Source: Somniosus microcephalus (taxonomy: Eukaryota). From it: a stretch of 64,000 bases of DNA. The stretch lies in contig CM126217.1 of the NCBI GenBank assembly GCA_052327205.1, positions 84,196,001 through 84,260,000 of the forward strand, written 5' to 3'. Made by a program: the position numbers and the translations under genes. Of the stretch, positions 1 through 57,941 are shown piece after piece. Each line of letters opens with the position of its first letter. The first letter of the stretch is position 1. The notes under the pieces were generated by a model. The model was not told where the DNA came from and searched no databases. It saw nothing but the letters and a program-made list of their open reading frames with translations.

Positions 1-159
1 CTGCTGTATACTGTAATACCGACGGTGACCACACCGGTATATAAGTGCTGTGTCAGGATTTATTGGGCAGATTCGCCCTGACCTTCGAATAGTAAAGTCC
101 TGTTAAAGTTACTCTTGTAGTCTGTGTATTAATTCGCCATAATACCTACAGACTTTACA
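1..159 (+). repeat. 5' LTR (partial) of element 1
   Basis: 159/159 match to 4311-4469 by eye; ends ...TTTACA; TATATAA at 38-44; AGTAAA at 91-96. Confidence 0.97.
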
Positions 160-160
160 G

Positions 161-170
161 TGGCGACGAG
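161..170 (+). promoter_or_regulatory. Primer binding site complementary to the 3' end of tRNA-Ser(GCU)
   Basis: TGGCGACGAG, 1 nt after the LTR; the same PBS or a 9-nt core occurs in elements 2, 3 and 5. Confidence 0.85.
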
Positions 171-1143
171 TTCGATCTTACCCTGCGGCAACAATACTTC
201 CGAAGCAGTTAATGAGCGTCGAGAAGAGGCACCCGCCCTCGTCGTTCTGCTGAGAGAAAACTCGAGTCTGCAGAGCAAGGAAGAAGGAAGAATTCAGACA
301 CGAAGCCTTCCATCAGCAACAGGCACTGATTGTCCCTTCTGCCATGGTGGTGAGTGAGCCGATCAGCACGAGAAGCAAGTCGGCCACGGTGACTGTGAGT
401 AAAGGGAAAATAAAAAAATAAACGGAGGATAAGGGCGGTGAACTCGACCACGGTCGGGGGAAAGGAGCCGGACAGAAGTTGGGCCCAGAGGCGCTGAGAC
501 TGGGGCAGCGTGGAGCACGGAAGCCGCGGTACAAGCGGGCTGGGAGACGCAACGGCGTCGTGAGACAGCTAGACCGCGATCGGCGAAAAAGGCCGGGCAG
601 CTACCGAGGCCACGAGGCGCTGCGACCGGGATCGTAAGGCGCGGGAAGATATAAAAATAAATAAATCACGGAGAACTCAGCCGCAGCCGGGGAGGAAAGC
701 ACCGGACTGCGAGAGGGCTGGGAGGCGCGATTGGAAGCTGCTGAGGGAGAGACAGAGCCCGAGCGAGCGGGAGAGACAGAGCCCGAGCGAGGGAGACTGA
801 GCGAGATCCAGCCCAGCGGCTGAAACTGTTCGCTGTCAACGGGTTGTACCCAGCGCCGGTTGCCCTGCCGAGAAAAGGGAACAAGGGACGCACTGAAGCT
901 GACGCGCAGGCTGCGAACCCCGAAAGCCAGCGGTCGTCGCCCGAGGGAAAAGCTTACCCCTCCCGCCAGGGGAAGAAACGCGGGAAGCCGCCAGTAGGCG
1001 GGGAAGACGACAGAAGCGGGAAACCGCCATTTTGAAAGTGGGCGGGGGAAGAAGACAAGCGCGGGAAACCGCCATTTTGAAAAAAAAAAGTTAAAGAAAA
1101 ATTTCGTGTTTGTTTCACAGAAAGATAGTGAGAGATAGTGAAG

Positions 1144-2310
1144 ATGCCTAAGCATGGTAACATCAACAACTTCGATTCCGAGGTGGAAGATTGGGCCACG
1201 TACGTAGAACGTATCGAGATATATTGTGAGGCCAATAAGATAGCAGATGATGATAAAGCTCTCACCTTATTAAACGCAATGGGGGCAAAGACATACGGGC
1301 TAGTGAAGCATCTTCTATCACCAGCTAAACCGGCGGATCAGACTTTCGCTAATATTGTTGCTGTCCAGAAGGATCATTTGAACCCCACACCACTGATGTT
1401 GGCGGAATGATTCAAATTCTATGCGAGAACGCAACGGAAAGAGGAAAGCAACGCGGAATACTTGGTCGAACTGCGTAGACTAGCGAAATACTGCCAGTTT
1501 GGGGAAAATCTGACAGAGGCACTGAGAGACAAGTTCGTGTGCGGGTTGTCGAAGGAAGGAACACAAAAGCGTCTGCTAGAAGAGAACGATCTCACACTTG
1601 ATAAGGCTGTCCTTATTGCAGCATCGCACGAAGCCGCAGCGAGAGGCACAGCGGAAATGTAGCTGAAGGCAGCGGTACTCAGTGTGGATCAAATTACTTC
1701 GGGTACATCGAAATGTTATCGTTGTGGGAAGACAACACACGACCAGAACCAATGCTGGTTTAAAAACCAAGAATGTAGAAAATGTGGCAAACTTGGTCAC
1801 ATAGCTAAGGTATGCCGGTCAGGAAAGAAGACCAACAACAACAAAAAAAAGTCACCGCAGGAAAAATACAATAAGGTACACAAGGTGGCTGAGAAGAGTT
1901 CAGATGAACAGAATTCGGATTCAGACCCAACCGTTCAGGAACTGGGTAGTCTGAGAATTCACAATGTGAGTAAGGAAGCTGACCTGCAAACTATCTGGGT
2001 CATGCTAAAAATAGCCGGAGTCCAAGTGAAAATGGAATTGGACACAGGATCAGCCCTATCCGTCATAAATCGAAGGGATTACAACCGGCTATTCTCACAC
2101 ATACCCTTGAGAGATACCAAGATCGTATTGCAGACATACACGGGGCAGAAAGTATACCCCATGGGAAAGATAAAAGTCAAGGTGAGAGACAGGGGCAAAG
2201 AACACCAAGGAATGTATTTATATGTACTACCTGAGGGAGGTCCACCACTTCTGGGGCGGGAGTGGATCTGGGAAATAAACATGGAATGGCACTATTTAAA
2301 AGCAATAATG
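1144..2310 (+). pseudogene. Gag-protease of element 1, one frame with two premature stops
   Basis: ORFs at 1138, 1462 and 1684 share one frame. Stops are TGA 1408-1410 (AE*F for AERF) and TAG 1660-1662. Motifs CYRCGKTTHDQNQC, CRKCGKLGHIAKVC, MELDTGS and PLLGREW. Confidence 0.93.
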
Positions 2311-2550
2311 AGTGAGAACTCGGTGAAGACAATCAGCTCAGACTCTGAAACGGATGACGATAAGACCAGCCCAGGTGCGAAAGACAAGTTTAAAATGGAC
2401 TTGCTGACTAAGGTTGGAAAAACGAAGGAGTGCATAAATGCTTATGCTTCAGAGGAGAACAAAGTTTCAGAACAGAATTCCACTGAACAACAACAACATA
2501 GTTTGACAGAGAATTCTGAGTCTGTCCAGTTTACAGATATGCACAATTCT

Positions 2551-2763
2551 GAGGAACACCGGGCTCGAACTCAACTCCATTTCAAATTACAACAGCAATT
2601 AGAACAATTGAGTTGCCGTCTCGAACAAGAGATGAAAGCAATGAAAAAGTTCTGTGACACAGAGTGGGAGAACCTGGAAAGACAACAGAAACAGCTGATG
2701 GAGAAAAAGGAGCAGGAGCACACAAACCGTCGGGGCAAGGAGGCCAAACGAATCAAAGCTGAT
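2551..2763 (+). pseudogene. STK10: Captured fragment of STK10(LOK)/SLK C-terminal coiled-coil (PKK) region, in frame with Gag-PR
   Basis: EEHRARTQLHFKLQQQLEQLSCRLEQEMKAMKKFCDTEWENLERQQKQLMEKKEQEHTNRRGKEAKRIK resembles recalled STK10 EEHRNQTQL...KKFFDTELENLERQQKQ and SLK KLQQQ...EQEHTNRLRDEAKRIK. Paralog assignment is uncertain. Confidence 0.8.
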
Positions 2764-2790
2764 TCGGTTTCAGAAGGTGCGTGCTTTAAT

Positions 2791-3450
2791 CTGGTGGAGC
2801 AAGAGGTTCAGCAACTGAAAGCGCTTGTTAGCGGATTGCAGGCAGAAAAGACTGATTTGGTCGCCATGAACTCCGAGCTCCTACTGAAGTTGGGTGCAGC
2901 ATCACCGGACGATTCAAGTGGGGAAATTCGAATGGTGGAGGCTGCGGATGATGGCGAAGTAGAAACAGCAAAGGAGCCCCAGGGCAAGGTTATAAACAGC
3001 CCTGCAGCTACTGGGAAACGTATGAGGTCAGAGGAGTTAACGGTCAGCCAACTCCTTCATATGCTGAAGGACAAGACTCTGAAATGGGAACAAATTGAAC
3101 AGGAGTTTAAATCTTCAAAGGAGAGGGGTTTGGAGCTCCCAAAAGTTATTGAAATAGCTGAGGTTGCAACACAGACTGAGAAGATGGCAGCAGAGCAACC
3201 CTTGGATGCCAAAAGTACGCTGACTCACGTCAATGTTGAACAACAGAAGGTTGAAACAGCTGCTGCAGTAGAGGGATTGAATAGTCCGATCAACCAATCT
3301 CCGAATGAAGTTGAAGTATTGAATCACAAATGACGTCATTAGTAAAAGACTTGCAGGAAGCCCAGAAAAAGCTGGATGAAGCTGGACGCCTGAAGAAGTC
3401 TCTTCAGGAAAGATGTCTGGATTTGGAACAAAAGCTGGCTAATGTCCAGC
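2791..3450 (+). pseudogene. OPTN: Captured optineurin central coiled-coil fragment, intronless, with a -1 shift at about 3330
   Basis: Collinear matches to recalled human OPTN: LQAEKTDL..SELLLKL (LQAEKADL..SELQLKL), DDSSGEIRM (EDSFVEIRM), EELTVSQLL (identical), ATQTE (ETQTE), EVEVLN..TSLVKDLQEAQKKLDEA..KKSLQERC (EVEALN..TSLFKELQEAHTKLSEA..KKRLQEKC). Confidence 0.9.
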
Positions 3451-3455
3451 TGGGT

Positions 3456-3752
3456 ATGGAGGAAATAGAAGACCCTCTCACTGGCCTAGCTCAAGATGAC
3501 ACCGAATATTACCATGACCTGTTGGACGACATCGAATATTACGATGACCTGTTCTGCCCAGCTTGTGATGAAAACTCCCAAAGTGCAGAAACCATGAAGA
3601 CTCACAAAAAGTCTAAGGAACATCGGGAGATGGTGGCGCTACTACGGAAAAAGGAGGACGAGAAGGAGGAACTGTGCATGCAGCTGGCAGCTGACAGTGG
3701 AGCCCAGAGAGTCTCCAAGAAGCAGAAAAGGAAAAGACGAAGCAGAAGATGA
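3456..3752 (+). pseudogene. DNAJC21: Captured DNAJC21 fragment (first C2H2 zinc finger plus basic tail)
   Basis: [35 protein letters not shown] vs recalled DNAJC21 [35 protein letters not shown]; downstream SKKQKRKRR vs SKKQKKKK. Confidence 0.88.
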
Positions 3753-4028
3753 TGATCATCTGGACCATCATCATCACTACTAGATCACGCACGGGGTCCC
3801 TTCGAACGGAGCCAAATCAGTTTGGAAGTAGAAAAACTTCCCAAGGTACTCAAGTTTTTACAAGCCAACAATGCTGGTTCAGAAGGACGGAAGTTCAAGC
3901 TGTTAAGTCCAGTGAAGGACTATTGGATGAGTCACTCCAGCAACGTGAACCGACTACACCACAGGGAACTGCTACACCACTGAGGTGTTGTCAGGACCGA
4001 GTCAAGAAGCACGGAAGGCGCATCCACC

Positions 4029-4138
4029 GAGATTGAATCTGTGAACTGTTTTCCGCAGAGACTGAATCTATGAACTGTTTCCCGCAGAGACTAAATCTGT
4101 GAACTGTTTCCGCAGAGACTACATCTGTGAACTGTTTT
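4029..4138 (+). repeat. About 29-30 bp tandem repeat, roughly 4 copies, in the 3' UTR of element 1
   Basis: Unit approximately GAGACTGAATCTGTGAACTGTTTCCCGCA. Confidence 0.9.
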
Positions 4139-4213
4139 AACATGAAGTTGGATATATGTTATGATGTTATGTTTAATGGGGAATAAGTATGTTGTAAGCT
4201 AAAAAGGGAGGAT

Positions 4214-4469
4214 TGTAGTGTATGTAACTGTTCTACCTTTAAGAGAATTATTGTATGTAACCGTTCACCTTTAAGAGAACTATTTTAGGTGTGGCACTAC
4301 TTTATCTTGGCTGCTGTATACTGTAATACCGACGGTGACCACACCGGTATATAAGTGCTGTGTCAGGATTTATTGGGCAGATTCGCCCTGACCTTCGAAT
4401 AGTAAAGTCCTGTTAAAGTTACTCTTGTAGTCTGTGTATTAATTCGCCATAATACCTACAGACTTTACA
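4214..4469 (+). repeat. 3' LTR of element 1 (256 bp, TG...CA)
   Basis: Starts TGTAGTGTATGTA directly after the PPT; ends TTTACA. Confidence 0.95.
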
Positions 4470-5550
4470 GTTGACACACTTGCATTGGAACAGTGGAGTC
4501 TGCAGTTGATAAAGGCACAGATGAGTTTTTCAGCAGCAGATGTGCTGAGGTAAGGCTGGAAGCAGGCAATGTTATGGAGGTGGAAATAAGCAGCATTTGT
4601 GATGGTGATAATATGGGGTCAGAAACTTGGCTTAGGATCAACCAGAACACTGAGGTTGTAAACAGTCTGAGACAGTGACCAGGGACAGCAATGGAGTTGG
4701 TCATGAGGTTACAGAGTTTGCACTAGAGGCTTAAGACAATAGGAAATGGTAGCTCATCCAAGACTGGATGTTGGGCAAGTAGACGGATAGCATAGCAGCA
4801 ACAGAAGGGTCGAGGCAGTGGTAGGTAGGTAGTGTTGAGTGTCATTAGCATACATGTGGAAGCTCACCCCAAGTTTACAAAGGATGTCAGCAAGGGGCAG
4901 CATGTAGGTGAGGAAGAGGAGGAGGCTGGCCAAGGATGTATCTTTGGGGGACTTTTAAGGTAACAGTGCTGGGGTGGGATGAGAAGCCATTGCTAGAGAT
5001 GTTCTCTCTACGATTGGATAGGTAAAAGTGGAACCAAGTGGGGGCCGTTCCACCGAGTTAGACAATGGAGGAGAAGTGTTGGAGGAGGATAGTGTGATCG
5101 TCCATGTCAATGGCTCAGAGAGTTTGAGGAGGGATAATGCACCACAATAACAATCACAGAGAATGTCATTCATGAATTTGGTTAGGGCTGTTTTGGCGTT
5201 ATGGGACGGGCAGAAACCTGATTGCAGAAATTCAAAGAGGGAGCTGTGGTAGAGATGGTTACAGATCTTTGTGGTGACTATACATTCAAGAACGTTGGAG
5301 AGGAAGAGAAGCTTGAAGATGGGATGGTAGTTAGCTAGGACAGAGTGATCAAGGGTGTTTTTTTGGAATTTGGGGTTGATGGCTGTTTTGAAAGGAAGGG
5401 GGATAGTGCTTGAGGTGAGGGGACTATTTACAGTGTTAGCCAGCATGGGGACCAGGAAGGGTGAATGGTGTCAAGGGAGCAGGGGATCAGTCTCATGGAT
5501 GAGATTAACTTGGAGAGGGCTTGGAGTAATGGGGGAGAAACTAGAGCGGG
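4470..5550 (-). mobile_element. Degenerate L2-clade LINE ORF2 (RT) fragment adjoining element 1
   Basis: Minus-strand translation has L2-type RT motifs (FKTA.I.P..KNTLD..LANYHPI..L.FLS.VLE; QSGF.P.H..TAL....NDIL) with many disruptions. Confidence 0.8.
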
Positions 5551-10562: not shown

Positions 10563-11212
10563 CGAAATCGGCATTTAATGAGGTGATAATTGGCTCAAAA
10601 TGGGGTCGGTAGATGTATCGCAATATTACCGCCAAAGCTCATAGACACCGATATTTGTACAGGGAGCTATTGCTGGGTGGCCAGAGCACCCACCTGGTTC
10701 AGTTGGTAGGCCCTCTTTTAAGCCCTCTTTCATTCAGTAAGTGACAACATAACTATACCCATAGTGAGACCATCCAAGAAGCTATCAGTACTGGTTTACA
10801 ACACTTGGGGAGGGATGGGGAGGGTAATTTTAACCGCACCCGCCTGGCAGGGAGCTAACTAGATCGGCTCAGCTGCTAGTGTAACACCCTGTCCGATTTT
10901 TATTTTCCATTGACTTCAACAGAAAGTAAAATCGGGCTGGGTGTAAAACGGGTCCCATCAGTTTCCAGTCAAGTGGGTTAGGTTAACATTAGTGTTATGT
11001 CCGACATTGGGGATAGGTACTAGATTGCCTTGGCCTGAGCACATGAAGTTTGATAGTGCTGTTATCATTATATTATGTCTGACATTGGATATAGGTATTC
11101 GATTGCTTTTGCCTGTAAGAGTGTGGTTGCATCAGCCATTAAAAGCGACATGAGTTAAGTTCTACATACGGCCTCTGGATTATCTTTGCAAACGCAACAT
11201 TTGGCGACGAGG

Positions 11213-14200
11213 ATGGCTGAAATCTCTCTTCCACCAACTCCTCCCTTCCTTGCACTACCTGGTGAGCCCCCGATCCCATGGGTTCGCTGGTTACAGTCCT
11301 TTGAAACCTACCTCATCACTCTCGGACTAGAAAATGTGAGAACAGCACGGAAAAAGGCACTGTTATCCCATTGCTTGGGAGCGGAGGGCCAGCGTGTTCT
11401 TGGGACATTAGGCACAGCAGACTCAATTCAAACATATGATGTGGCTGTGGCTCTGTTAAGCACACACTTCTCTGCCCCACAAAGTGCCCTCCTGCGGCGA
11501 TTCATTTTTAGACAGCGTCACCAACTCCCCGGCGAGCCTGTGCATCAATACATGACTAATTTGAGGGGGTTAGCTAGCTCGTGCAAGTTCGGTGCACTAC
11601 AAGACGAGATGGTGCGTGATCAACTAATAGAGCACACCAACAACGTGAGAGTGCACGAAAGACTGTTACTCGAGTCCGACGATCTGTCGTTGTCACAGGC
11701 AGTTAACATTGCCTTTCAAGTGGAGTCTGCAGCCGAATGTGCAGTGAAACTAGCACACACACCCAGTGACAGTGCCCTCGGCCCCGACAGCTCTGACACA
11801 GTAATGCTCGCGCGACGGCAGCAACGCGCGCTACCGCGGCAACAGTGTGGAAACTGTGGATCTCGTTCACATGCTACCAGAGCGCAGAATTGCCCCGCAC
11901 GTGGCCAAGCCTGTCGCAATTGTGGAAAACAAAATCACTTTGCCAATGTCTGCCGCTCTGCCCCTGTTGCTACAAATGAACACTCTCAGTCCTCAAGCAC
12001 TATAATTCACAACGTGAGCTCTGGGCCAGTAGTGGCTTTCAAGTCATGCACAATTAACCTGAATGATGTGTGCATCCCTCTGTTGTTGGATACTGGTGCC
12101 AGCGTCTCACTGCTGAATGTGGACACATTCAAACATTTTTTCAGCTCCCTGCCACTCTCTGCGCCCTCCACTGCCCTTTGCGGGTATGGTAATTCGAAAA
12201 TTGGACTAGTGGGTTCAGTCAACTTCACTGTACGCTATGGAACAAAAGTTTTGCCAGATTTTTGTTTTCATGTGGCACGCCAAGGAGCTAACCTGATGGG
12301 ACTGGATCTTTTCACTGACCTGGGTTTTTCTCTCTTGGACACCGGCGGGTCTGCGATTCTGCACGTCACCTCACCGTGGCGCCAAACATGGCCAGCATTC
12401 TTCGAGGGTCTGGGCTGCCTGACTGCCTTCACCCACCAGCCCATGGTTGACTCCACCGTTACCCCTGTCATTCAGCCACTGCGCCGCATCCCGCTTGCTC
12501 TCCATGACAGGGTCACAGCTAAACTAAAGCAGCTACTGGAAGCTGGCATCATCGAACCAGTTGATGCCTCCCTATGGGTCTCCAACCTGGTGGTCGCAAA
12601 GAAAAAGTCAGGTGGTCTACGCATCTGTGTCGATCTTTGAGCAGTTAATAAGGCCGTAATCCCTGACAAATATCCACTGCCTACGTCAGAGGAACTCACA
12701 GCGCAGTTCTATGGTTCCGTCCTGTTCTCGAAACTGAACCTTCGACAGGGCTATCTACAGGTTCCCCTCCACCCCAGCAGCAGGGACCTCACTGCTTTTG
12801 TGACACATGCTGGCATCTTTCGGTACACCAGGATGCCATTTGGACTTAGCTCTGCACCCAGCTGCTTCCAAAAGGTGATGTCCTCTATGCTCGCGGGCAT
12901 TCCTGGGGTGGCCATCTACCTGGATGACATCGTCGTGCATGGGCCCTCGACCTCCACTCACGATGAACGCCTTCACAGAGTTTTCACGGCTCTAGCAAAA
13001 CACAAGCTCACACTGAATGGCGAAAAGTGTGTCTTTGCTGTTTCAGAGATCGAATTTGTGGGGTTTCGGTTGTCGGCTGACGGTATATCCCCACTCCAGT
13101 CAAACGTGGATGCCATTCACAGCATCCCAGAACCCAGCTCTGCAGCACAGGTTGCCTCCTTCCTTGGCATGACTGGGTACTACCTGAAGTTTTTGCCCCA
13201 GTACTCAGCCACCACAGCCCCACTGCGCCAGCTCCTGTGAAAGAATGAGCCCTGGGTGTGGTCACAAGCCTGTACGGAAGCTGTTCGCCTCCTCAAATTG
13301 CAGCTCACGTCGCCTCCAGTGTTGGCTCACTTTGATGTCGCCAGCCCCACCCTCGTCACCTGCGACGCGTCCGCTGCAGCTGTGGGGGCAGTGTTATCAC
13401 AGGTACAGAATGGAGTGGAGAAACCAATCGCCTTTGCCTCCCGAGCCCTTAGCCCCACGAACAGAAGTACTCAGCAGGCGAGCGTGAGGCGCTGGCGTGC
13501 GTCTGGGCATGTGAGCGGTGGCACCTGTACACGTATGGCCGTGCCTTCACCCTGCGAACCGATCACCAGGCTCTCACTGCCCTGCTGTCGACATCCGGCA
13601 TGGGCCACAGACCACTGCGTCTACACCGCTGGTCTGACCGCCTCCGCCAATACAATTTCAGTCTCCAGTTCACACCAGGATGTGACAATGTTGTTGCAGA
13701 TCTGCTCTCCCGCACTGTCTCTGCCCCAGCCCCACTCGTCGGGTTTGAACATGTGGAACAGGATATCGTCCAGATGCTGCACACGCCTCTCCAAACCACA
13801 GTCTCTCTCCAGGAGCTCATAGAGGCCTTTGAACAGGATCCGGCCCTCTCTCAGCTGTGCACCTTCATCAGAGATGGCTGGCCTCACAAGGTGCCTGAGG
13901 AACTGTCTGCCTACTCCAGAGTTAAAGAGGAGCTCTCCTGCTGGAATGACTCCTGTATTGCACGTGGGCTCTGCACTGTGGTCCCAAGTGCCCTTTGTGC
14001 GCGTGTTTTATCCATGGCACACGAGGGCCACTTGGGCATAGTGAAGCTCAAACAACGATGCCGAGACCTAGTGTGGTGGCCGGGTATCGACAGGGAAATC
14101 GAGCCCCTGGTCAAGGACTGTGCAGCCTGCCTTGTAAGTGGCAAGACTGGCCACCAAGCTCCTCCACCCCTGCAACCCCTTGCCTGGCCCTCTCAGCCCT

Positions 14201-15312
14201 GGAAGCACCTGCAATTGGACATCTGCGGGGAGATCCATGGTGTCCCCCACCATCAACGGTTCCTAGTGGTGACCTATGATCTGCACTCAAAATTGCCAGA
14301 GGTCACTGCCGTGGGCTCCGTCACCTCTCGGGTCATCATCGATATCCTTGAGTCCCTCTTCTCCCGCTGGGGGCATCCAAAGGCCATCACCACAGACAAT
14401 GGCCCCCAAATGGTCTCTTTGGAACTCTCCTCTTACCTTGAGAGCAAGGGCATCCATCACATACACACATACCACCCCAAGTCAAATGGGGGGGTGGAGC
14501 GTTTTAATCAGACACTGAAAAATGGCCTCCGAGCAAACCTATCCCAGGGGTGTGCGTTTGACAAGGCCCTCCTCCACACACTGCTGCACTACAGAGCCTC
14601 CCAGCATTCCACTACAGGGGTCTCACCCGCATCCCTCATGCTAGGCCATGAGCTCATGCTGCCCCTTGGTAGGCTCCGCCCCTCGCTAGCTCAGAGCCCT
14701 GCTCCACGGGCTCAAGCCACAGTCGCTAGACAGCAGGAGAAGATGAAACTCCGCTTCGACCAGTCGAAGAGGGCCAAGGCGCCCAACATCTCAGTCTCCG
14801 ATTGGGTCAGAGTCCGCAGGCCTCACCGCAACAATAAGATGGCCTCATTCTGGTCCTCCCCTCTCCAAATCAGCCGCCAACTTGGACCAACCACTTTCTG
14901 CCTCACTGACGGCTCTCGGTGGCATGCCAGCCGCCTTCGGAAGGTGCCAGCACCCCCTGATGCGGGATTACACGGATCTAATCCCCAAGCCTTACCCCCA
15001 GAGTGGCGGGATGCACATGTGGCTCAGCCAGCCAACCCTCAAGCAGATATTGTGCCTCAGCCAAAACCTCACCAGTCCCCACCTCGGCTTGCTCCTCCCC
15101 AGTCCCCACCTCGGCCTGTTCGTCACCAGTCCCCACCTCGGCCTGCTCCTCACCAGTCCCCACCTCGGCCTGCTCTTCACCAGTCCGCACCTCGGCCTGC
15201 TCCTCACCAGTCCCCACCTCGGCCTGCTCTTCACCAGTCCGCACCTCGGCCTGTTTGTACACGTTCTCGCCCTGGCCACCTACAGGACTTTGTCACCACA
15301 TTTCATGTTTGA
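11213..15312 (+). pseudogene. gag-pol of element 2 (2xCCHC, PR, RT YLDD, RNase H, integrase) with stops and frameshifts
   Basis: ORF pieces 11186-12640, 12800-13240, 13256-, 13600-15312; motifs LDTGA, YLDD, CDAS, HEGH..C..C, TDNG, VERF. Confidence 0.93.
15067..15252 (+). repeat. 30-bp tandem repeat, about 6 copies, encoding a Pro-rich (HQSPPRPAP-like) integrase tail
   Basis: Repeated CCTCACCAGTCCCCACCTCGGCCTGCT-type units. Confidence 0.9.
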
Positions 15313-15848
15313 AATTCTGTGAGGGGGGAGGAAATGTTTTGTCTGACATTGGGGATAGGTACTCGATTGCCTTGGCCTGAGCACATGAAGTTTGATAGTG
15401 CTGTTATCGTTATATTATGTCTGACATTGGATATAGGTATTCGATTGCTTTTGCCTGTAAGAGTGTGGTTGCATCAGCCATTAAAAGCGACATGAGTTGA
15501 GTTCTACATACGGCCTCTGGATTATCTTTGCAAACGCAACAATTAGGCCTTTGGAATCGATCAACCTCCTTATAAAGGAACACCTTCATTAAGCTGATCT
15601 ATTGAGGAATGAGGTTGAATAGTAGAAGTGACATTCTATTTAAATATTCATTTGAGTTTTGGTCCAGGAAGAATGCAAAACCTTTTACTTTGATTTTTTT
15701 TTTCCCTGTAAAAATCAGTTAAGTAATTTAGGCATCATTGAGGATATGGGATAACCATCAAACTGAGCCCCGATTTAAGCTCAGAGTTTTGATTGTTTAA
15801 TTTGTTTTGGTTCAGTGTATATTTTAATTAGGTAACAGAGTGCGGGCA

Positions 15849-18800
15849 TGTAGTGTATGTACCTTGAAGAAGGAACTATATTCTGCAGCCCCTGTATACT
15901 GCAATACCAGTAGTGACCACCCCGGTATATAAGCCTGTATAGTAGTTCCAGTTTTGTCTCCATTCAGTAAACAACTGTTATAACCAACTTCTGCAGTCCG
16001 TGTCTCAATTACACACGGACGTTACACTGGCGACGAACAGGTCCGAACTTACCTACAGTTCTGCATCACCTCACGGGGATCCATCTCTGAAGCGAAGTTG
16101 TTAGGGGTCGAGGCCAGAAGGAAGAAATCCAAAAAAGAAAAAAAAAACAAACAGAAGAAACGGGTGTCGACCGTGGGCAACCGCCCTCTGATTCATCAAA
16201 TTCGAAGATTTGCAGGAGAGGCTGTCGAGAGCTGGGCTTGGTTATCCAGTCTATGGTGTTCCAGCTAATCGGGCTGGTGGCAGGTAGTACACCGATCCTT
16301 CCTGGGCTGCGGCTGGCTAGAGCTCGATCGGGTGGCTTTTCAACGGGGCCGAGCAGCGTTGTCGGGAAGAGGAGAGAGAGAGAGAGAGGGTGGAGCACAC
16401 AGGGCGCGGCCGGTGCTACGAAGCCAGGCAGCGTACAGACCCGAGAAGAGGGAGGAAAGTGTCCCATAGGGTCTGCTCCGACGACGGGAACAGTAATTAA
16501 AATAAGAGAAATTAGAAGCGCAGAAAGCCGCGAGGAGCTGCAGTTTGCCACGGGGACCGCGGAGAACGGCGTTGGCAGCAGCGCGGGGGGGAAGTGCGCG
16601 AAGACCATAGGGCGTCGCCATCAAGGCATAAAAATGCCAGCAACAGCGCTAGCAGCAGTGGAAAAGACAGAAAGCGCGGGAGGCGCCATCTTAATCCAGC
16701 GGGGAAGAAGGCAAAGCGCGGGAGGTGCCATTTTGTTCAATCGGGGAAGAAGGCAAAGCGCGGGAGGCGACATCTTAGATCTCCAAGATGCCGAAGACTG
16801 GCAATATCACTGCCTTCGATAATGCAATAGAAGACTGGACCACGTATGTGGAAAGAGTCGAAGTATATTGCAAGGCAAATGAAGTAGCCGATGAGAAAAA
16901 GGCATCGGTACTACTAAACTTAATGGGCGCAAGAACGTACGGCCTATTGCGGAACCTGATCACTCCAGTCAAACCGATGGCGAAGAGTTTTAATGAAATT
17001 GTTGATATCCTACAGGAACACCTAAATCCTACAACGCTGCTGATAGCAGAAAGATTTAAATTCCACAAGAGAAATCAGCATAAAGATGAGAGCAATGCTG
17101 ATTACCTTATGGAACTACGCAAGCTATCAAAGCACTGCCAGTTCGGAGCAGGCCTGGCAGATACCCTACGGGACAAATTTGTCTGTGGACTCCTGAGTGA
17201 AGGAACCCAAAAGAGGTTACTCTAGATAAGGCTTTCAGCGTGGCAGTATCGTACGAAGCAGCAGCAAGGGGAGCTGCGGAAATACAGCAAAAGCCACAGG
17301 AATACGGCACCCATGAAATGACACGGGGATTTGAAAAATGTTATCGCTGCGGCAGAACAACCCATGACCAGAAGGACTGCTGGTCCAAGGAAAAAACATG
17401 CAGGCAATGCGGAAAGATGGGACACATTGCACGAGTTTGCAGGTCCGGGAAGAAGACTAACGACAACAAAAAGACTACTAAGGAAAAGTACAGGAAAGTA
17501 CAAAAGATGACGGACAGTAGTTCCGAAGACCAGAAGAGCGATAGTGAATCCGGGAACAAGAGACTAAGCTGTCTCAAACTACACAACGTAATCACAAAAG
17601 AGGATCACCGAACCATTTGGGTCACCCTCACGATAGCAGGGTCCCAAGTCAAAATGGAATTGGATACAGGATCAGCCCTGACTGTCATGGATCGACGAGA
17701 CTACGAGCGGCTATTCTCACACATACCCTTGAAAGACACATCCATTGTCTTGAAGACATATACGGGGCAGAAAGTATACCCCAGAGGGAAAATAAGGGTG
17801 CCTGTCGAATACAACGGCAAGGAAATACAGAAATTGTATCTGTACATACTGCAAGATGGTGGACCACCGTTATTGGGATGTGAATGGATCAGAAAGATAA
17901 GTTTAGACTGGCACTTCATTCAGGCACTGACGGTGGCTGGTAAAAAGGATGACGATGTCACACCTGGACGATTGTCAAAAATCTTGGCTAACACTAAAGA
18001 GGTATTTCAACAAGAACTGGGAACTCTTAAAGGCGTAAATGCCTCAATAAAAATAGAAGAGAATGCAATTCCTAAGTTTTTCAAAGCAAGACCGGTACCG
18101 TATGCAATTCGCCCAGCCGTCGAGGCAGAGCTGGAGAATCTGGAGAATGCAGGTGTGTTAAGTAAGGTAGACTGGAGCAAGTGGGCGACACCCATTGTTC
18201 CTGTCATGAAGAAAACGTTAAACAATAAGTCTGAGGAGCCAAGGAAGGTTCGCATCTGTGGGGACTTCAAGGTGACTGTGAACCCAGTCCTTCACACAGT
18301 ACAGTGTCCTCTTCCGAGGATAGAAGATATTTTCGCCTCACTATCTGGAGGGAAACGTTTTACAAAAATTGACCTAGCGCAAGCATATTTGCAGATGGAG
18401 GTTGAAGAATCCTCTAGGAAATATCTCACGATAAACACTCACAAAGGTCTTTACCAGTATAATCGACTGGTATTCGGAGTTGCATCAGCTCCGGCTATAT
18501 GGCAAAGAGCGATGGAACAAGGCCTGCAAGGGATTCCGGGGACTCAGTGTTACTTGGACGACATCCTAGTGACGGGTGAAAATGACAGTGAACACCTTGC
18601 CAACCTAGAGCAGGTGCTCACTAGACTAAGAGAACATGGGCTACGAGCCAATCGCCCCAAGTGCGAGTTTTTTAAGAAACAAATATCGTATTGTGGCCAC
18701 GTGATTGATGAAGAGTGGTTACATAAGTCCCCTGACAAAATTGAAGCGGTAGTTAAGGCTCCAGCGCCTGAAAATGTGTCGCAACTGAGGTCATTCCTCG

Positions 18801-21016
18801 GATTGGTGAATTACTACCATAAGTTTTTGCCGAATTTGTCCACAATTCTGCACCCACTGAACGCCCTGCTACAAACTGGAGTAGCATGGAAATGGAGCGA
18901 TGAATGTAAGCGGGCCTTTCAGAAGTGTAAAGGCCTGATCACTTCAAGACAAATATTGGCTCACTACAACCCATCACTACCGATAAGACTGGCGTGTGAT
19001 GCGTCTTCCTACGGCGTTGGAGCGGTACTGTCACATAAATCCCTTGATGGTTCAGAGAGGCCGATAGCTTTTGCGTCATGCTCGTTAACTGCAGCGGAGC
19101 GTAACTACACCCAGATTGACAGAGAGGTCCTCAGCCTGGTGTGGGGGGTGAAGAAGTTCAATCACTACCTGCACGGACAGAAATTTACTCTACTAACTGA
19201 TCATCAACCTCTTGTCTCCATTTTCAACCCTAAGAAGGGCGTCCCGATAATGACCGCACAACGGCTACAGAGGTGGTCCCTTTTCCTAGGGGCACACCAA
19301 TATGACATCGAGTACAAAGGAACTAAACAGCATGGGAATGCTGATGGATTGTCGCGCCTACCGTTGCCGACGGTGGAAGAAGCACCTGCAGTGGATCCTG
19401 TGGAGATATTCTACTCGACCATAGTCGAATGTCTACCTGTGATGAATGCAAACATAGAAAAGGAAACACGAAATGACCCGACACTCTCCAGGGTCTATGA
19501 TTTAACGGTGAAGGGATGGCCAGCACATGGCGAACCACTGTTGCCAGCATTCTCGCCGAGAAGAGAACAGCTGTCAGTGTGCCGAGGAACCATGATGTGT
19601 GGATCCAGAGTAGTAATTCCGCCCAAATTGAAGGATAGAGTGCTCAATGAGCTTCATGAGGGTCATCTGGGAGGGGTAAAAATGAAGAACTTAGCCAGAG
19701 CGTTTGTGTGGTGGCCGGGAATCGATAGAGAAATCGAAGAGATGACCAAGAGCTGTACAGGATGCCAGAAGGTCCAAAACGCCCCACCACAAGCCCCTCT
19801 ACATCCATGGGAGTGGCCCTCATCTCCATGGCAAAGGGTACACATTGATTTTGCTGGTCCATTTATGGACTCAATGTTTTTAATTGCGGTGGATGCACAT
19901 TTAAAGTGGCCAGAGGTAATAAAAATGTCCTCAACCACCACAGAAAAAACTATCACAGTCTTACGAACCATATTCGCCAGAAATGGGCTGCCTGAACAGA
20001 TTTGCTCCGACAATGGACCACAGTTTGTGTCTGAAGAGTTCTGGAGGTTCTTAAAGAACAATGGTGTTAAGCATTACACATCCGCCCCATATCATCCAGC
20101 CACCAGTGGATTGGCCGAGAGGTTCGTTCAAACATTCAAGAAGGCTATCAAGGCAATGTGTAATGAAGACATACCCCTACAACACAAGGTGGATAACTTC
20201 TTGTTTGCCTACCGGAATGCGACACATGCGGTTACCAACCAAATTCCAGCCATGATGTTCTTCAATCGAAGACTAAGATGCCGCTTGGATTTGGTTAAGC
20301 CAAACATCAGAAGAGATGTGGAGAACAGGCAGTTTCAGAATATGAATGAAAGGCCAACCAGGAGTTTTAAGATAGGTCAACCAGTTTTGGCCCGGGACTA
20401 CCGCACAGAGAAATGGCAGCCAGGAACGATCTGCACACGGCAAGGACCTCTAATGTATACCGTGGACGTTGGAGAGAGCATTGTAAGACGCCATGCTGAC
20501 CAGATTCTAGAGTCACTGGAAAACGTCAAATCTTCACCATGATCCTATACACCTGGTGATGAAACCGAAGTACCAATTACATCTACCTCAGAATCGGTGA
20601 TATTGGAAGCAGACGAACCAAACAACGACGTTGATCCTGAATCAACTTTGCCAGAAGAACCTGATACCCCAAAGAGGCGTTATCCGGACAGAATCAGGAA
20701 GCCTCCTCAAAGACTGAATTTATAATTGATTAACTTCAGCTAATGTATATCGCAACCGTAATTGTAAATATGTTATTTAATTATTAATCGAATGTTATGT
20801 ACTGTTTAGCTAAAAGGGGAGGAATTGTAGTGTATGTACCTTGAAGAAGGAACTATATTCTGCAGCCCCTGTATACTGCAGTACCAGTAGTGACCACCCC
20901 TGTATATAAGCCTGTGTAGTAACTTTGTATAGTAGTTCCAGTTTTGTCTCCATTCAGTAAACACCTGTTATAACCAACTTCTGCAGTCCGTGTCTCAATT
21001 ACACACGGACGTTACA
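15849..21016 (+). mobile_element. Full-length Ty3/Gypsy (Mag-like) LTR retrotransposon (element 3), related to element 1
   Basis: LTRs 15849-16026 and 20826-21016 (13-bp indel plus a few substitutions); TSD GGGCA; PBS TGGCGACGA at 16028; PPT before 20826. Confidence 0.97.
16788..20725 (+). pseudogene. gag-pol of element 3; frameshifting deletion at about 17222, then 1100-aa open NC-PR-RT-RH-IN, then a late stop at 20540-20542
   Basis: LDTGS, YLDD, ACDAS, HEGH/C..C, D-D-E (HIDF, SDNG, AERF); tail ...RKPPQRLNL*. Confidence 0.93.
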
Positions 21017-22204
21017 GGGCACAGGGAACTATTATAAGTGTAATGGTATCTCGTGGTTTCTAGGAGGAAAGAAAGTCGAGAGGATTTGTGCTGGGTGACC
21101 TAGGGGCAAGACTAAAGTCATCATGAGGCCTAATACATCAACAACCCTGGTTCATCAGGCAACAGTTAATTTTACATTTGATCTTCTCCATACCACAGAC
21201 AGATCTTGGTATGAAAATTACATTGGCTGCTCTTTGCAAATGTTCAGCAGTGCTCTTTCTCAAGTTACAATTTCAATTAGTCCACACAAAAGCAGGTGCC
21301 TGTGCTACGTTTCCACATACTTGGATATAATGCAGTTTTCATACACAAGGTCATGATGATTATTAAGAAGCCGTTGTGCTCATACTATCTTCTAGATATG
21401 AGTTACTTACTTAAAGACTATTATTTACTAGTTTCAATGCTTTTTGTTGTTGGAACCCTATTCATGCAATGGTTTCATCAGCAGCACCATAGCTACGGAA
21501 ACCATAACAGCAAGGTGCAAAAGATCTCTATAATAATCAAACCAAGTGTTGATTCTTGGAAACCTTTTGTGAAGACTGTTTTGAATCTAATATATTTTAT
21601 AAACAGCTGGCTGTGGGAAACTGAAAATACCAATTTAGCTCCGAAAGCAATGAGCATGAAGCCCAGCATGTGCACAGTGGTGCCTTTGTTTATAGGTGGT
21701 AAATGATGTGATTGTCACTCGCCAGAGGAATCTTGGGGGTCCAAGCCTTGGGGGTTCATTCAACTCTGGTTCATTCAACTCTGAACACAATTTACTCTCT
21801 GTTACTTGGAAGATAAGAATACTGTTACATACTCCAAACGTTCTTTTAATATAAACTCTTCAGTTAATCCTGTTGGTTGCAATTTTGGCCCATTGCTTCT
21901 GCCTTCATGAAGGAATTAAACATTTTTGACTTTGTAACTAATAGCATTGGGCATTCCCAGGGTTGATGTGGCGAGTTTAAATTCAGTGAAGCAGCTTTTC
22001 CTCCACCACTCATGATCTCCATATGAATGAGAAAGCTACGATTATCTCCATTCCAAAGCATGGTCATATCTAGTGGAAATGGCCTGGTCTTGATCAGCAA
22101 GAGACGTTGGGATAAAAGGATTTAGCTGAACTATTTAGGGGACTGTTAAAGTGTAGAATTGTTCTGTTTTATTTTAGAAACTTGCACTTTCTGTCAGATT
22201 TTTT

Positions 22205-23210
22205 TTTTAATTCATTGATGGGATGTGGGCATCGCTGGCTAGGCCTGCATTTAGTGCCCATCCCTAATTGCCCTTGAGAAGATGGTGGTGAGCCGCCTTC
22301 TTGAACAGTTGCAGTCCATATGGTGTAGGTACATCCACAATGCTGTTAGGAAGAGAGTTCCAGGATTTTGGCCCAGCGACAGTGAAGGAACGGCGATACA
22401 GGTCCAAGTCAGGATGGTGTGTGGCTTGGAGGGGAACTTGTAGGTGGTGATGTTCCCATGCGTCTGCTGCCCTTGTCCTTCTAAGTGGTAGAGGTCGCGG
22501 GTTTGGAAGGTGCTGTTGAAGCAGCTTTGGCGAGTTGCTGCAGTGCATCTTGTAGATGGTACACACTGCAGCCACAGTGCGCCGGTGGTGGAGGGAGTGA
22601 ATGTTGAAGGTGGTGGATGGAGTGCCAATCAAGCGGGCTGCTTTATCTTGAATGGTGTCGAGCTTCTTGAGTGTTGTTGGAGCTGCACTCATCCAGCCAA
22701 GTGGAGAGTATTCCATCACACTCCTGACTTGTGCCTTGTAGATGGTGGAAAGGCTTTGGGGAGACAGGAGGTGAGACACTCGCCACAGAATTCCCAGCCT
22801 CTGGCCTGCTCTTGTAGCCACAGTATTTATATGGCTGGTCCAGTTCAGTTTCTGATCAATGGTAACCCCCAGGATGTTGATAGTGGAGGATTCAGCGATG
22901 GTAATGTCATTGAATGTCAAGGGGAGATGGTTAGAGTCTCGCTTGTTGGAGATGGTCATTGCCTGGCACGTGTTTGGTGCGAATGTTACTTGCCATTTGT
23001 CAGCCCAAGTCTGAATGTTGTCCAGGTCTTGCTGCATATGGACACGGACTGCGTCAGTATCTGACAAGTCTCGAATGGTGCTGAACAGTGTGCAATCGTC
23101 AGCGAACATCCCCACTTCTGACCTTATGATGGAGGGGAGGTCATTGATGAAACAGCTGAAGATGGTTGGGCCCAGGACCCTGCCCTGAGGAACTCCTGCA
23201 GTGATGTCAT
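22205..23210 (-). mobile_element. 5'-truncated CR1/L2-group LINE (RT C-terminus, FADD)
   Basis: ORF 22264-23115 MFADDCTL...WADKWQVTF...YKAQVRSVMEYS; poly-T on the + strand marks the 3' tail; same family as 44825-46345. Confidence 0.88.
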
Positions 23211-23902
23211 GTGATCTTTTGACTGTTCCAGTAAAAGTATAGATATAGTACTGGCGTGAATCTTAATCAGACCGAGACGTACATACTGGGGGGAATTTTA
23301 ACATTCCCGGCTTGGCAGGAATTGAGTGGGCGAACAATTAAAGCGAAACGACTGAATTTCCCACCGATTCGGATTTCAACACCACTGGTTTGGCTGCAGA
23401 TGAGCTGCCCGCCGGACCCAGGTGGGTGCTCGTGTATTAATGCAGATCGGGGACCCGTAACATCAATGGGACATCGATTGCATTTTAACCTGGGCCTGAG
23501 ATATGCCTTTGATACATCTTTTTGCCACTGGGAAGGAAGGATAGCCACATGCAAGGAACACAGTAACATGCTTTTGTGAAGGAATAAGCCATATTTCAGA
23601 AAAATACACCATCTTATGAAAATTCTGATATTATTAAAACATGAGAAACTGGGTTTAAAAATCTAAAAAACCTCAGAGACACAAGCTGTAAACAGAAATA
23701 CAGGCTTCTGAGATAAAGATCACTTGTTATCAAAGTTGTAAAAACCGCAAGCTTTTGAAATGGGAATGGGTTATTGACCAAGAAACAATGGCCCTATTGA
23801 AATAGCAGTTTGGCGCTTCCAAAAGGTCTGGAGTTTGGGAGAAACACAATGGAATGACCCAAGAAAAGTATTAAAAACCAACACGTTGAACAGAAACACA
23901 GA

Positions 23903-26035: not shown

Positions 26036-26391
26036 CTGAGGGGACAAAAGAAAAAATCAGACGCAATGTAATAAGCTCAATTGTGATTAAAGGATTGCAT
26101 TTCCAAAATTCTCTTTAAAAAAAGAAAATGAATACATTTTTAAAAATTTTCCCTTTTACTTTGGCCGCCCTAAAAACATACTGAAGAATTGTAGTGTGAA
26201 CGAGAAAGCCACAATTATCTCCATTCTAAAGCCATTTTAGGTGGTGTTGTCATAACTAGTGGAAGGGGCCTGGTCTTGATCAACAAGTGACTTTGGGATA
26301 AAAGGACTTAGCTGAATTATTTAAGAGACTGTTAAAGTGTAGAATTGTTCTGTTTTATTTTAGAAGCTTGCACTCTCCATGAGATTATAAT

Positions 26392-32515: not shown

Positions 32516-33944
32516 TTAGTTTACTAAATCATGTGTCCTCAGCGATGGAGGGTTAACTCTTGTGGAGAATGAGCAAAATCTATCACACACTGGAAACTAT
32601 ATTTTTCTTTTAACCAGATTAACTTCTATTTAGGTACATTTTTAACATTTCAGAAACTCGTTTTGCTGCGTATATTTTTTTTCTCAAAGTGAGTGAGACC
32701 TCATGCAATTCCTAAAGCTCTGGCACCTCAAAACTAACAGTGTGTGACAGCTCAAATGTCCTGCGTTAGTCACATTCAGTGGGCTGTGACAAGGTAAATG
32801 ACACCAATTACCTGATATAATTACTGCCTCTGACAGTATCTTCCCCCCAGTGATTGTTTGATGAGTTTTGCAATGCCTGTGTTGTCAATCCCATCTTCAT
32901 CTGAGGGCCTCTATTGCTGTCAGTGGACCTCGCACAGACATTGATTAACTGTTACTGTTACAGCAGCCTGCTCTCAATATCACAAACTGATCAGTCAATT
33001 CGACGGGATTCAGTTAGTTCCAGCAGAAACTAAATATTTATAGTGGTATTCTGTTGATATCTCAAAATGACAGTTGAGCATAGCATTGGAAATGAGGGAA
33101 AAAGCAATTCTCCATCCTAAATCAGTCCGACATTCAGATATCCCGAAAAATCATTTTCAGAATGACATGTTCCTTGAAAACAATGCTTCTGCACCTGTGC
33201 AGAAGGACAATTACAAAGTTTGCACCATCTGTTCACACCTGTGTGTAATTGGATTCTGACTAAGATGTATACGAAAGTGTGCCTTTTCAAGGTCACTACC
33301 TCAGCCTTTCTTCCATCTGCAGCATATGTTCGAACTGGATAGCCACCTACATCTCAGCCTGGAACTTGCCAAAGGAATGACAACCTTCCTGCCATGACAA
33401 AACCCGCTCTGCTAGTTATGTATGTAATTATATTATTAATGGCCCTGGAATTCTGTGGGCCTTCGGACACAGGTTCGCAGGGAATGTGGTCGGAGATGGT
33501 GGGTCCCACCACCACAGCCAGTTTCCTGGGGCACCTGTTGGGGATGGAACCTCTGTTTAATTTAGTTATTTGTTGCATTTAACTAAATTTATACCTAAAT
33601 TGGCAACTTGTATCACTGTTTGTTTCTAAAAAAAAATCATTAAAATGTGAAATATTTTAATGTGCGTCAAATATGTTACAATTACTGTGGAATGTGGGGT
33701 CAATTCTAATGGAAGTACTTTAGAATGACTTCTATGAATAGGAATAATAAAAAGAGATACTGCCTCGTTTCCACAGGCGACACATGCATTACATAGTGAC
33801 GGGGCCTCAAGCTGAACTCAGTAGACTTACTGCCCTGTTAACGCTGATGCACTGGCAGCTGTCATTTTGAAAGGGGTCTTCCTTTGGGCGGCTGGAGCAC
33901 CAGCCTGTTTCCAGCCTCTTTACTATGCAGATCAGGCTCCTATG

Positions 33945-34754
33945 GGGCTGGATTTTCTCAATGGGGAGCTTTTGGAGGCGGGACTCCCACTTGCCGGGTT
34001 TTAGTCCCGCCTCCATCGACTTGTGGCCAACCCACACTATTTTCCCTTGATGGACCTTGTTAAGCCCGCCCAGCGGGCTCAGCAGGCCAATTAAGGGAAA
34101 GCCGGTTACAGGTGACGTCAGCGAGTGACGTTTCATCTGTCAAGAGCTTTTGACAGATGAAATGTCAGCATTTGAGAGCTCTGTGAAGCTGTCAAACACT
34201 GACAATCTGTCCTCTAAGTTGAGCCTTTCCACTCAGGCTCACTTGATCTCTCCTGAGCAGAAAGCAGACGGCTGCAGCATTTGACAGTTCAGCAGCCATC
34301 CTGCTTCCTGTGCCAGTGAGCTGAGGGACTCCCGAGACCTGAAGGGATGAAGCCTGCAGGAAGAAGTAAAGGTAAGTAAAACTTATTAAAACACTTTACA
34401 CTCACCTCACACACTTACCTCTCCACACTTGCACCCATCACTCACCTGCACACCGGACATCTCGACCCCTCCGACCCCCGCAGACTGACGGCTCGCCTCG
34501 CTGACCCTGGCGAGGTTCGGAGCCGTCGGAAAGCCCACACTTCAGGGCTGAAAATAGGGATTCTCCAGTTAATTAGTACTAATCCCCTTCCCGCCTCAGG
34601 GAGGCAGCTCCCAGCACGGGTCGGGTACCCGCCTCCTGGGAAGATGGCACAGAGACGGGTTGGGGGCAGGATGGGTACCCATCCCCAGATTCTGCCATTT
34701 TCCCGGCCGTCCTGCCTCTTTACCTGCCTCCCCAGGACTGGCAGAATCGCCCCC
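33945..34754 (+). mobile_element. About 810-850 bp non-autonomous DNA-transposon-like repeat (family A, copy 1)
   Basis: GGGCTGGATTTT ... AGAATCGCCCCC ends; internal hairpin TTTCATCTGTCAA-GAGCT-TTTGACAGATGAAA; homologous to 48513, 57942, 61621 and 63965. Confidence 0.8.
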
Positions 34755-36344
34755 CATGCTGTAGTTAGGGTCCTGATTGCAATTCTCAGGGCCACCTAGG
34801 CAAGTTTGCACTGTGCATGCTCCACCCACGTGTCCGGGCATTGAGCAGCCTAACCAGCTGTCCTCTAAGGGATCGCTGCTGGCCGTTCCTACAACAAGCC
34901 ATGAGTTATGAGGTAGTGCTCCTCCTGGCCCCACACAAATACTGCTGGTCACTCCTGGGCCGGGCCGGGCTCACCCACCCCTCCCCATTCACCTCCCCTC
35001 CCAGTAGCTAGCTGCAGGCCAGCATGGCGTATGAGCTGCTCGATATTGCACCAGCCCAAAGACAGCGAGCTCCAGTGGGATATCCAGTGAGATTTAAATG
35101 AAGCCCAAGCTCAGAATGGCTTAGGACTCCTCAGCCATTTGACAGAAGGGGGTGCCAGCCGACACACTTCCCCAGTCAGCCATCCAAAAAGTAAAGATCG
35201 GCCCCCTCAAGACAATTTACATATGGCATTACTTTTGTAGTGCAGCACCTATTGTTACGAGCACAAAAAATTGGGTTCTGCTGCATTTTTTGCAATCATC
35301 TTTCACTGTGCAATTCACTTCCAACTGTTTTTTATGTGCCATTTTTCAATACAGTTTCCTTCTCTGTTTTCATTGCCAGAGGGCAGACAACAGCTCTCCC
35401 GACACTATCTCTAGCATGAGAGAAACCCAGTATGACGCAACACATCGCATTGCTCATTACAGCTCTGCTGATCAAGAAAAATGGATGCCACACTTTGTAA
35501 AGGGGAAAGTAAATTATGTTGGATGGTTATTTATTTACGGACCGAATTTTTATGGCAGCACAATAATGGGTAGACTCGTAACCACCTTTCAATTGGTAAT
35601 TAAACTGCAATGTGTCCAAATTCCGAAACAGCAATAGATTTCTGACAGTAATATAGAATAATGAAATGTTCTATAGGACCACAGATGAAAACAGTAATCA
35701 GACAAATGTTGTATCAGTGACTCTACAAGCTGTTGTTCCATTGCTATCGGTGGTGTCATTAGTTATTTTTAACCAGTCCTGGCAGGCATGTTTCATGCTC
35801 ATAATAATCAACCGGGTTTCCGCACCCCTAATCAGATGGAGGGATGAAAACACCGTTTTCCAACTGAACTGTGAAAGTATCTAATAACTTCCAGGCAACT
35901 TCTAATTTCCCTGGAGTGCGTGGTATTAGTAACTGAGCACTAGGCCGTGAGCAACCCCAGGAGCAAAGCCAGTGAACCCTGCAGTTCCAATTTCGGAGAG
36001 CAGGGTGGTGAATAAATATTTGATATGAATGGTGCTTTCCCTTGGCATCTAGCTGATGCTTTTGCTCTGGATCATACAATGTAAATTTGTTTTAAGCTTC
36101 ACCGGTTTTTAAAATGTAGTTATAGAATTATTATGCTCCTAAAGATCACCATGGCCACATGCAAGCAGTGGCGTCCGACTTCACTGCCTGACTCCTGATC
36201 TCTCTCTCTCTCCAATTTTTTCGGGGCTGCTCTGGAAATGAATTTTCTTTCGGTGGAGAGGAGCAAGGTGGCTGCGCGGTCACCTTTGATAGTTGCTCCT
36301 GCGAGGGAAGCGCTGCGCTGCACTTACCCATTGTTATCTTTGTA

Positions 36345-57940: not shown

Positions 57941-57941
57941 A

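Follow-up and report, generated by a model that had tools for sequence, protein, structure and literature searches.

The window, which is the whole stretch of 64,000 nucleotides of DNA analysed here, opens on a non-autonomous derivative of a shark Ty3/Gypsy LTR retrotransposon. The features of this element are listed below.

1..159, plus strand: 5' LTR, the visible last 159 of an expected 256 nucleotides, with 0/159 mismatches to 4311-4469
160..1143, plus strand: GC-rich 5' leader with small tandem repeats (CpG observed/expected, repeat search)
161..170, plus strand: primer-binding site (PBS), TGGCGACGAG; a TGGCGACGA motif lies 1-3 nucleotides past the 5' LTR in 3/4 neighbouring elements
1144..2304, plus strand: gag and aspartic protease, interrupted by stops at 1408-1410 and 1660-1662 (Pfam zf-CCHC, Asp_protease_2)
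2311..2556, plus strand: cargo 1, STK10 fragment (Pristis residues 395-476; tblastn E 2e-18)
2551..2757, plus strand: cargo 2, STK10 PKK coiled-coil fragment, in frame (Pristis residues 603 to about 671)
2767..3467, plus strand: cargo 3, intronless optineurin (OPTN) fragment (Pristiophorus residues about 135-384; two-frame tblastn)
3498..3730, plus strand: cargo 4, DNAJC21 zinc-finger fragment (Carcharodon residues 313-373; 47/47 matches of DNAJC21 type)
3733..3937, plus strand: cargo 5, STK10 fragment with two frameshifts (Chiloscyllium punctatum residues 322-389; three-frame alignments, tblastn)
3985..4138, plus strand: integrase C-terminus remnant and 29-nucleotide tandem repeat (C-termini of Gypsy Gag-Pol; TRF)
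4201..4213, plus strand: polypurine tract (PPT), abutting the 3' LTR and near-identical to the PPT of the element at 15849-21016
4214..4469, plus strand: 3' LTR, 256 nucleotides, TG...CA, with 137/182 aligned positions shared with the LTR of the element at 15849-21016
4470..4474, plus strand: predicted 5-bp target-site duplication (TSD), GTTGA (5-bp TSDs in 4/4 neighbours; partner upstream of the window)

The direct LTRs, the PBS past the 5' LTR and the PPT ahead of the 3' LTR are all Ty3/Gypsy features. The gag and protease are also Gypsy-related, and the integrase tail comes last, ahead of the PPT, which fits a PR-RT-RH-IN order. The 3' LTR is complete (TG...CA) at 256 nucleotides; therefore, 97 nucleotides of the 5' LTR, including its start, lie outside the window, and its visible part ends in CA. 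Because all four neighbouring elements have perfect 5-bp TSDs, GTTGA at 4470-4474 is predicted to be the right TSD. The PBS presumably corresponds to tRNA-Ser priming; ARAGORN found no tRNA genes within the window. The tandem repeats of the leader were found at 745-802 and 980-1082, and the leader is in part similar to that of the element at 15849-21016. In addition, the 3' LTR begins with a duplicated 32-nucleotide unit (4214-4284). Searches against Rfam gave no match in 1-4600.

The zinc knuckle was located at about 1771-1818 and the aspartic protease at about 1999-2262. Among the matches listed, single-ORF Gypsy Gag-Pol proteins were no more than 51% identical to the gag-pro region. The Pfam families found in the ORFs of the element were the zinc knuckle, the aspartic protease, the PKK domain and a C2H2 finger, and the three element ORFs scanned gave no Pfam match to reverse transcriptase (RT), RNase H or integrase; four flank and antisense ORFs matched no Pfam family. 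Moreover, three intact Gypsy Gag-Pol proteins (of 10 queries) align solely to 1141-2331 of the element. A previous reading made from the sequence only had stated that this copy carries no enzymes for reverse transcription or integration, which these searches bear out; that reading omitted the protease and an integrase tail of about 20 codons. This tail (about 3985-4044, with a stop at 4042-4044) retains the last integrase codons, and named Gypsy Gag-Pol proteins, like two neighbouring elements, have a matching C-terminus. The 29-nucleotide tandem repeat (3.8 copies, 4029-4138) is made of these last codons and the stop. The survival of the protease on one side and of the integrase tail on the other shows that pol is replaced rather than interrupted: the protease ends at about 2304, the integrase tail resumes at about 3985, and host sequence fills the interval. 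The copy lacks the RT, RNase H, integrase core and open gag of an autonomous Gypsy element.

According to the protein alignments, the pol of this element is swapped for intronless pieces of STK10, OPTN and DNAJC21, all of which are on the sense strand. Cargo 1 starts at residue 399 on STK10 of C. punctatum and is in frame with gag-pro. Cargo 2 matches the Pfam PKK family with an E value of 2.4e-12 and had a tblastn identity of 65%. In cargo 3, about 250 OPTN codons are packed in 700 nucleotides, a region that we take to span several exons of the gene. Its top matches among those listed were shark OPTN proteins (Pristiophorus and Heptranchias, 65-66%). Together with the best relatives of the other pieces, DNAJC21 of Carcharodon and STK10 of elasmobranchs, these matches identify the host as a shark. 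Cargo 4 is preceded by a 30-nucleotide in-frame duplication (25/30 identical), and the frame ends at 3750. On STK10, cargo 5 ends 9 codons ahead of the start of cargo 1, which amounts to a circular permutation. No A-tail was found at the end of the cargo. The cargo thus consists of partial, intronless pieces of host mRNAs without poly(A) of their own, as LTR-mediated retrocopies require. Searches of solved structures gave weak matches to OPTN peptides only (E 0.016 and 0.077) and nothing meaningful for the second ORF. At about 2910-2930, two adjacent residues that are invariant in 15/15 chondrichthyan OPTNs are altered in the cargo. We assume that this pair is the core of the LC3-binding (LIR) motif, in which case the OPTN fragment of the cargo probably cannot bind autophagy proteins.

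Four other full-length Gypsy-type elements were found, giving five LTR elements in 64 kb.

10993-15541: full-length Gypsy-type element; LTR differences 5/207; perfect 5-bp TSD
15849-21016: full-length Gypsy-type element; LTR differences 3/178 and one indel; perfect 5-bp TSD
36899-41251: full-length Gypsy-type element; LTR differences 2/287 and one indel; perfect 5-bp TSD
52148-56918: full-length Gypsy-type element; LTR differences 3/199 and one indel; perfect 5-bp TSD

These neighbours belong to different families, and each has two to three breaks in gag-pol. The element at 10993-15541 also has a 27-nucleotide tandem repeat (6.9 copies, 15067-15253) in its integrase C-terminal region. A direct repeat pair at 22024-22200 and 26197-26386 differs at 21/177 positions, has no Gypsy coding match between its arms and encloses a LINE-type RT on the minus strand (22267-23262); it was excluded from the LTR pool since none of three Gag-Pol queries matched inside it. 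In addition, a repeat of about 800 nucleotides occurs in four copies with 70-82% identity and in both orientations (33940-34756, 48512-49355, 57934-58758 and 61620-62473). The flank at 4470-5500 contains, on the minus strand, a decayed LINE reverse-transcriptase frame that reaches the junction with the element and has no Pfam match. This LINE is presumably of the L2 type, and it should carry on upstream of the 5' LTR.

The exact match between the visible part of the 5' LTR and the 3' LTR, as well as the presence of LTR differences in all four neighbours, had been pointed out by the sequence-only reading, and both observations were reproduced. The match extends by coincidence for another 2 nucleotides (GT on both sides), and one mismatch outside the LTR of the element at 10993-15541 was removed from the count to give 5/207. 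That reading had further proposed that the element moved very recently and that its family may be currently active and the insertion polymorphic. The comparison lends these proposals no support. The 0/159 of this element did not differ from the pooled 13/871 substitutions of the neighbours (Fisher p=0.11; p=0.067 with indels), and at the rate of the element at 36899-41251, 0/159 has a probability of 0.33. The 95% upper bound of LTR divergence for 0/159 is 1.87%, which covers three of the four neighbours and allows at most 0.93% per lineage.

The mutation rate reported for the epaulette shark is 7e-10 per site per generation (accessible text of PMC10587355). At this rate, which is that of another species, a first difference in 159 bp would take 4.5 million generations to appear on average, and the age is at most 13 million (1.3e7) generations, a limit that becomes 6.6-67 million across the confidence interval of the rate. 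Scaled by diversity and with a flat prior on age, the probability of an age compatible with polymorphism was 0.15, 0.28 and 0.48 for assumed pi values of 0.0005, 0.001 and 0.002, respectively, of which only 0.002 is published (for the epaulette shark). Thus, 159 bp do not establish current activity or a polymorphic insertion. Among the full elements of the window, this insertion is probably the youngest, with an age bounded roughly between 0 and 13 million generations. For slowly mutating sharks, a short identical stretch of LTR can be millions of generations old.

The cargo has changed more than the LTRs allow. It differs at 9/64 OPTN columns that are invariant in 15 chondrichthyans and at 7/39 STK10 PKK columns that are invariant in 10 vertebrates, or 16/103 host-invariant columns in total. 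When elasmobranchs were left out one by one, the corresponding values were 0-5.8% for OPTN and 0-4.9% for STK10; Callorhinchus (14/79) was treated as an outgroup and kept out of this background. The DNAJC21 count (6/25) was set aside, as the leave-one-out value of the only shark there was 10/36. After subtraction of a 2.5% background, the nucleotide decay of the cargo was about 6.3% (3.1-11%), with orthologues of other species, not the host's own genes, as the reference. The ratio of cargo decay to the divergence that the LTRs allow is 3.3-6.8. This disparity, about 6% in the cargo against at most 0.93% per lineage in the LTRs, supports the view that the copy would descend from an older chimeric template. 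The CpG observed/expected ratios were 1.09 for the leader, 0.77 for gag-pro, 0.88 for the LTR and 0.25 for the flank, and the intact CpG of the leader and LTR argues for little decay in place. Movement in trans is near-necessary because pol is replaced while the PBS, PPT and LTR ends are intact, and we regard it as almost certain.

The two nonsense codons that had been described in gag, TGA at 1408-1410 and TAG at 1660-1662, are present. The ORF from 1144 is halted at these two sites and then open to 3333, where a third break that the earlier description lacked, a frameshift near 3321-3333 within the OPTN fragment, was seen by two-frame tblastn; the fragment was also aligned with 15 chondrichthyans. 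Calibrated with the breaks of the neighbours (6 stops and 5 frameshifts over some 15.5 kb), two stops with zero LTR change had a p value of 0.033 for gag-pro and 0.084 for the whole ORF, and three breaks with zero LTR change had a p value of 0.057. A neutral simulation from which the two stop sites were excluded gave 0.010-0.022 for two stops. All of these p values are modest, and the case was picked because it looked odd. The gag-pro region was not clearly more eroded than that of its neighbours: 3/51 invariant columns were changed, compared with 5/49 and 0/52, and at 90% conservation the counts were 12/87 versus 12/171 (p=0.064). In this erosion test, the Amblyraja row was kept though it is poorly aligned (18/70 when left out). 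Inheritance of at least one break is favoured because two stops without any LTR change are improbable. On balance, the odds tilt somewhat towards a template that already carried at least one gag break, and there is moderate support for stops older than the last copying. Thus, of the earlier claim that a helper had copied an already defective template, the movement in trans and the older chimera are upheld, the latter by the comparison of cargo and LTR decay, to which the earlier reading had no access, and the placement of the stops in the template draws moderate support (p 0.01-0.08). Stops are also common in newly inserted copies of wheat families, according to the accessible part of PMC9744471.

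The reading frame across gag-pro and the cargo was analysed as well. All four junctions ahead of the terminal stop are in frame (chance 1/81), and two of the three cargo breaks fall in the 205-nucleotide untranslated tail (p=0.043). The probability of at most one break in the translated cargo is 0.002-0.024 at 4.5-6% neutral decay and 0.10 at 3%. Although about 15% of invariant residues are changed, the stretch from 1663 to 3749 has a single frameshift. Erosion is also lower in gag-pro (3/51) than in the cargo (16/103; p=0.068). The frame and break tests were chosen after inspection of the sequence and are suggestive only. The frame of the cargo nevertheless seems to have been maintained in the family, which suggests that the family normally moved from translatable templates. 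Our preferred guess is that, with its frame kept open, the RNA would escape the decay that affects transcripts with a very long 3' untranslated part; alternatively, the fused coiled coils might have a role. The apparent pattern is selection on the open frame without selection on residues.

We consider four explanations, which are mutually exclusive and whose probabilities sum to 1. The best of them, to which we assign a probability of about 0.55, is that the chimera was recopied in trans from an older template already bearing at least one gag break. Based on established retrotransposon biology and the accessible text of Tan et al. (2016; PMC5131818), the history would be as follows. In the particle of an autonomous relative, RT would have switched from the RNA of the element to host STK10, OPTN and DNAJC21 RNAs and then back, so that RT, RNase H and most of integrase were exchanged for spliced fragments. 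The permuted order of STK10 could reflect a circular RNA copied in a single round, or one mRNA copied twice, the second time only up to the point where RNase H had already removed the template. The chimera would then have persisted while its cargo decayed by about 6%, a level of decay that is observed in the present copy. Later, a genomic copy with at least one gag break would have been transcribed from its LTR and primed at the PBS and PPT, and helper Gag-Pol would have reverse-transcribed and integrated it, with both LTRs reset to identity.

An appreciable though clearly less probable explanation is that the template was an older chimera with an open frame, i.e., a semi-autonomous Gag-Pro-cargo master that was also copied in trans. 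The stops and the frameshift would then have arisen in the last reverse transcription or in place, and the LTR identity would be a matter of chance at a neighbour-like age. The LTR comparison fits this explanation, as 0/159 is no different from 13/871, and so do the in-frame junctions, the two cargo breaks in the untranslated tail, the scarcity of breaks in the translated cargo and the lower erosion of gag-pro than of the cargo. Gag-Pro-only families also exist in wheat, as described in the accessible part of PMC9744471. However, it requires two to three breaks without any LTR change (p=0.01-0.08), which a template with an inherited break does not.

The copy might instead be a new recombinant, in which a fresh LTR-gag-pro backbone acquired, by a switch in the round that made this insertion, the old and already decayed cargo of another chimeric or pseudogene RNA, so that no family with this exact backbone exists. 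The seemingly greater decay of the cargo than of gag-pro (p=0.068) would follow, and no other copy was found, but the copy searches covered proteins and are blind to unannotated shark DNA. Moreover, two stops in a fresh gag are left unexplained and the junction between backbone and cargo has to be in frame by chance, and we consider this explanation improbable. The least probable of the four is an old insertion in which gag and cargo decayed on site, while gene conversion homogenised the LTRs or the assembly merged them. It would account for the decayed cargo, the stops and the identical LTRs without a second round. The CpG ratios, however, resemble those of the younger neighbours and not that of the flank, and with CpG intact in the leader and LTR, decay in place followed by LTR conversion is unlikely, since a leader outside the converted LTRs would have decayed all the same. 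The assembly also kept the differences within neighbouring LTR pairs that are similarly spaced. The near certainty of movement in trans spans the preferred explanation, the open-frame master and the new recombinant; for an old insertion with homogenised LTRs, the original insertion would still have needed helper enzymes.

Searches for further copies covered the window and protein collections, outside which unannotated shark DNA lies, and found no second copy of the chimera, helper or empty site. Of the best 120 of 290 cargo matches (proteins of 305-973 amino acid residues), none carries a Gag or protease family, and of the best 120 of 304 gag-pro matches (679-2000 residues), none carries an OPTN or PKK family. 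Only one of 150 representatives among the matches listed reaches past query residue 435, with 34% identity. Exact look-ups of ORFs found 0/8, and no second cargo or leader was present within the 64-kb window. The element at 15849-21016 was considered as a direct parent and rejected, given its LTR identity of 137/182, its gag-pro identity of 62% and its own frameshift and stop. It is possible that its family served as the helper.

Among known elements, the fish single-ORF Gypsy elements annotated as K02A2.6-like, which we take to be of the Mag lineage, have Gag-Pol proteins of 1,100-1,400 amino acid residues to which gag-pro is at most 51% identical, and they share the same integrase C-terminal motif. 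Different from the chimeric element, these elements keep RT, RNase H and integrase. The neighbour at 15849-21016 is closer: it shares the PBS, PPT and LTR ends and is 62% identical in gag-pro, and its LTR identity (137/182) marks it as a sister family.

The element works like LTR-mediated retroposition, which is a known process, and shows its testable features. LTR-mediated chimeric retrocopies are known to carry several genes and to re-mobilise (Tan et al., 2016; PMC5131818, accessible text). For re-mobilisation of the present chimera, the greater age of its cargo than of its LTRs is indirect support, and no second copy was found in the window or the protein collections. Similar to those retrocopies, part of the internal ORF is replaced by host sequence. 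Different from them, as far as they are described in that text, the element is from a shark and carries five pieces of three genes, mostly in the reading frame of gag-pro; its cargo is strongly decayed relative to the LTRs, and the pieces of one gene are circularly permuted. Similar to this element, the wheat families RLG_Sabrina_SA and RLG_WHAM encode Gag and protease without RT or integrase, and they depend for their mobility on an autonomous partner whose sequence may have little in common with theirs (PMC9744471, accessible text). These are plant families of high copy number with intact Gag-Pro, whereas the shark element has a broken gag and host exon fragments past the protease. The intact Gag-Pro ORF of a semi-autonomous family was thus not seen in the one copy examined, which has two stops.

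The order of STK10 recalls pseudogenes derived from circular RNAs, which, in the accessible text of Dong et al. (2016; PMC4897178), likewise show a non-colinear order of one gene and an association with LTRs. Unlike those pseudogenes, the element shows no back-splice junction, and OPTN and DNAJC21 occupy its place. Because these two pieces sit at the would-be junction, a linear mRNA copied a second time accounts for the STK10 order equally well.

In the literature searched, there was no description of such host-mosaic elements in cartilaginous fish, and the one relevant paper was a preprint on the Greenland shark. A three-gene host mosaic recopied as a mobile element in cartilaginous fish matters more than the identity of its LTRs. 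In the accessible part of that preprint (bioRxiv 10.1101/2024.09.09.611499), OPTN is one of the duplicated genes named, and the species-specific duplications include single-exon OPTN copies with LINEs or LTRs no more than 1 kb away. Similar to the chimeric element, these OPTN sequences are intronless, lie close to a LINE or LTR and belong to a large genome rich in LTRs. The preprint text treats them as gene duplications (retrogenes) and, in the same accessible part, describes no multi-gene mobile chimera. A tie between the chimeric element and these copies is a lead, not a result. A joint reading of all these points would be a still-mobile shark Gypsy family that has long encoded a Gag-protease-STK10-OPTN-DNAJC21 fusion in place of Pol, in which selection kept the frame open while residues drifted, including the autophagy-binding motif of OPTN, in which STK10 came from one pass round a circular RNA, and whose copies, rather than functional duplicates, explain the extra single-exon OPTN 'genes' of the Greenland shark; we consider this combination unlikely as a whole. 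Should families of this kind be abundant, large shark genomes would seem to have more lineage-specific gene duplications than they do.
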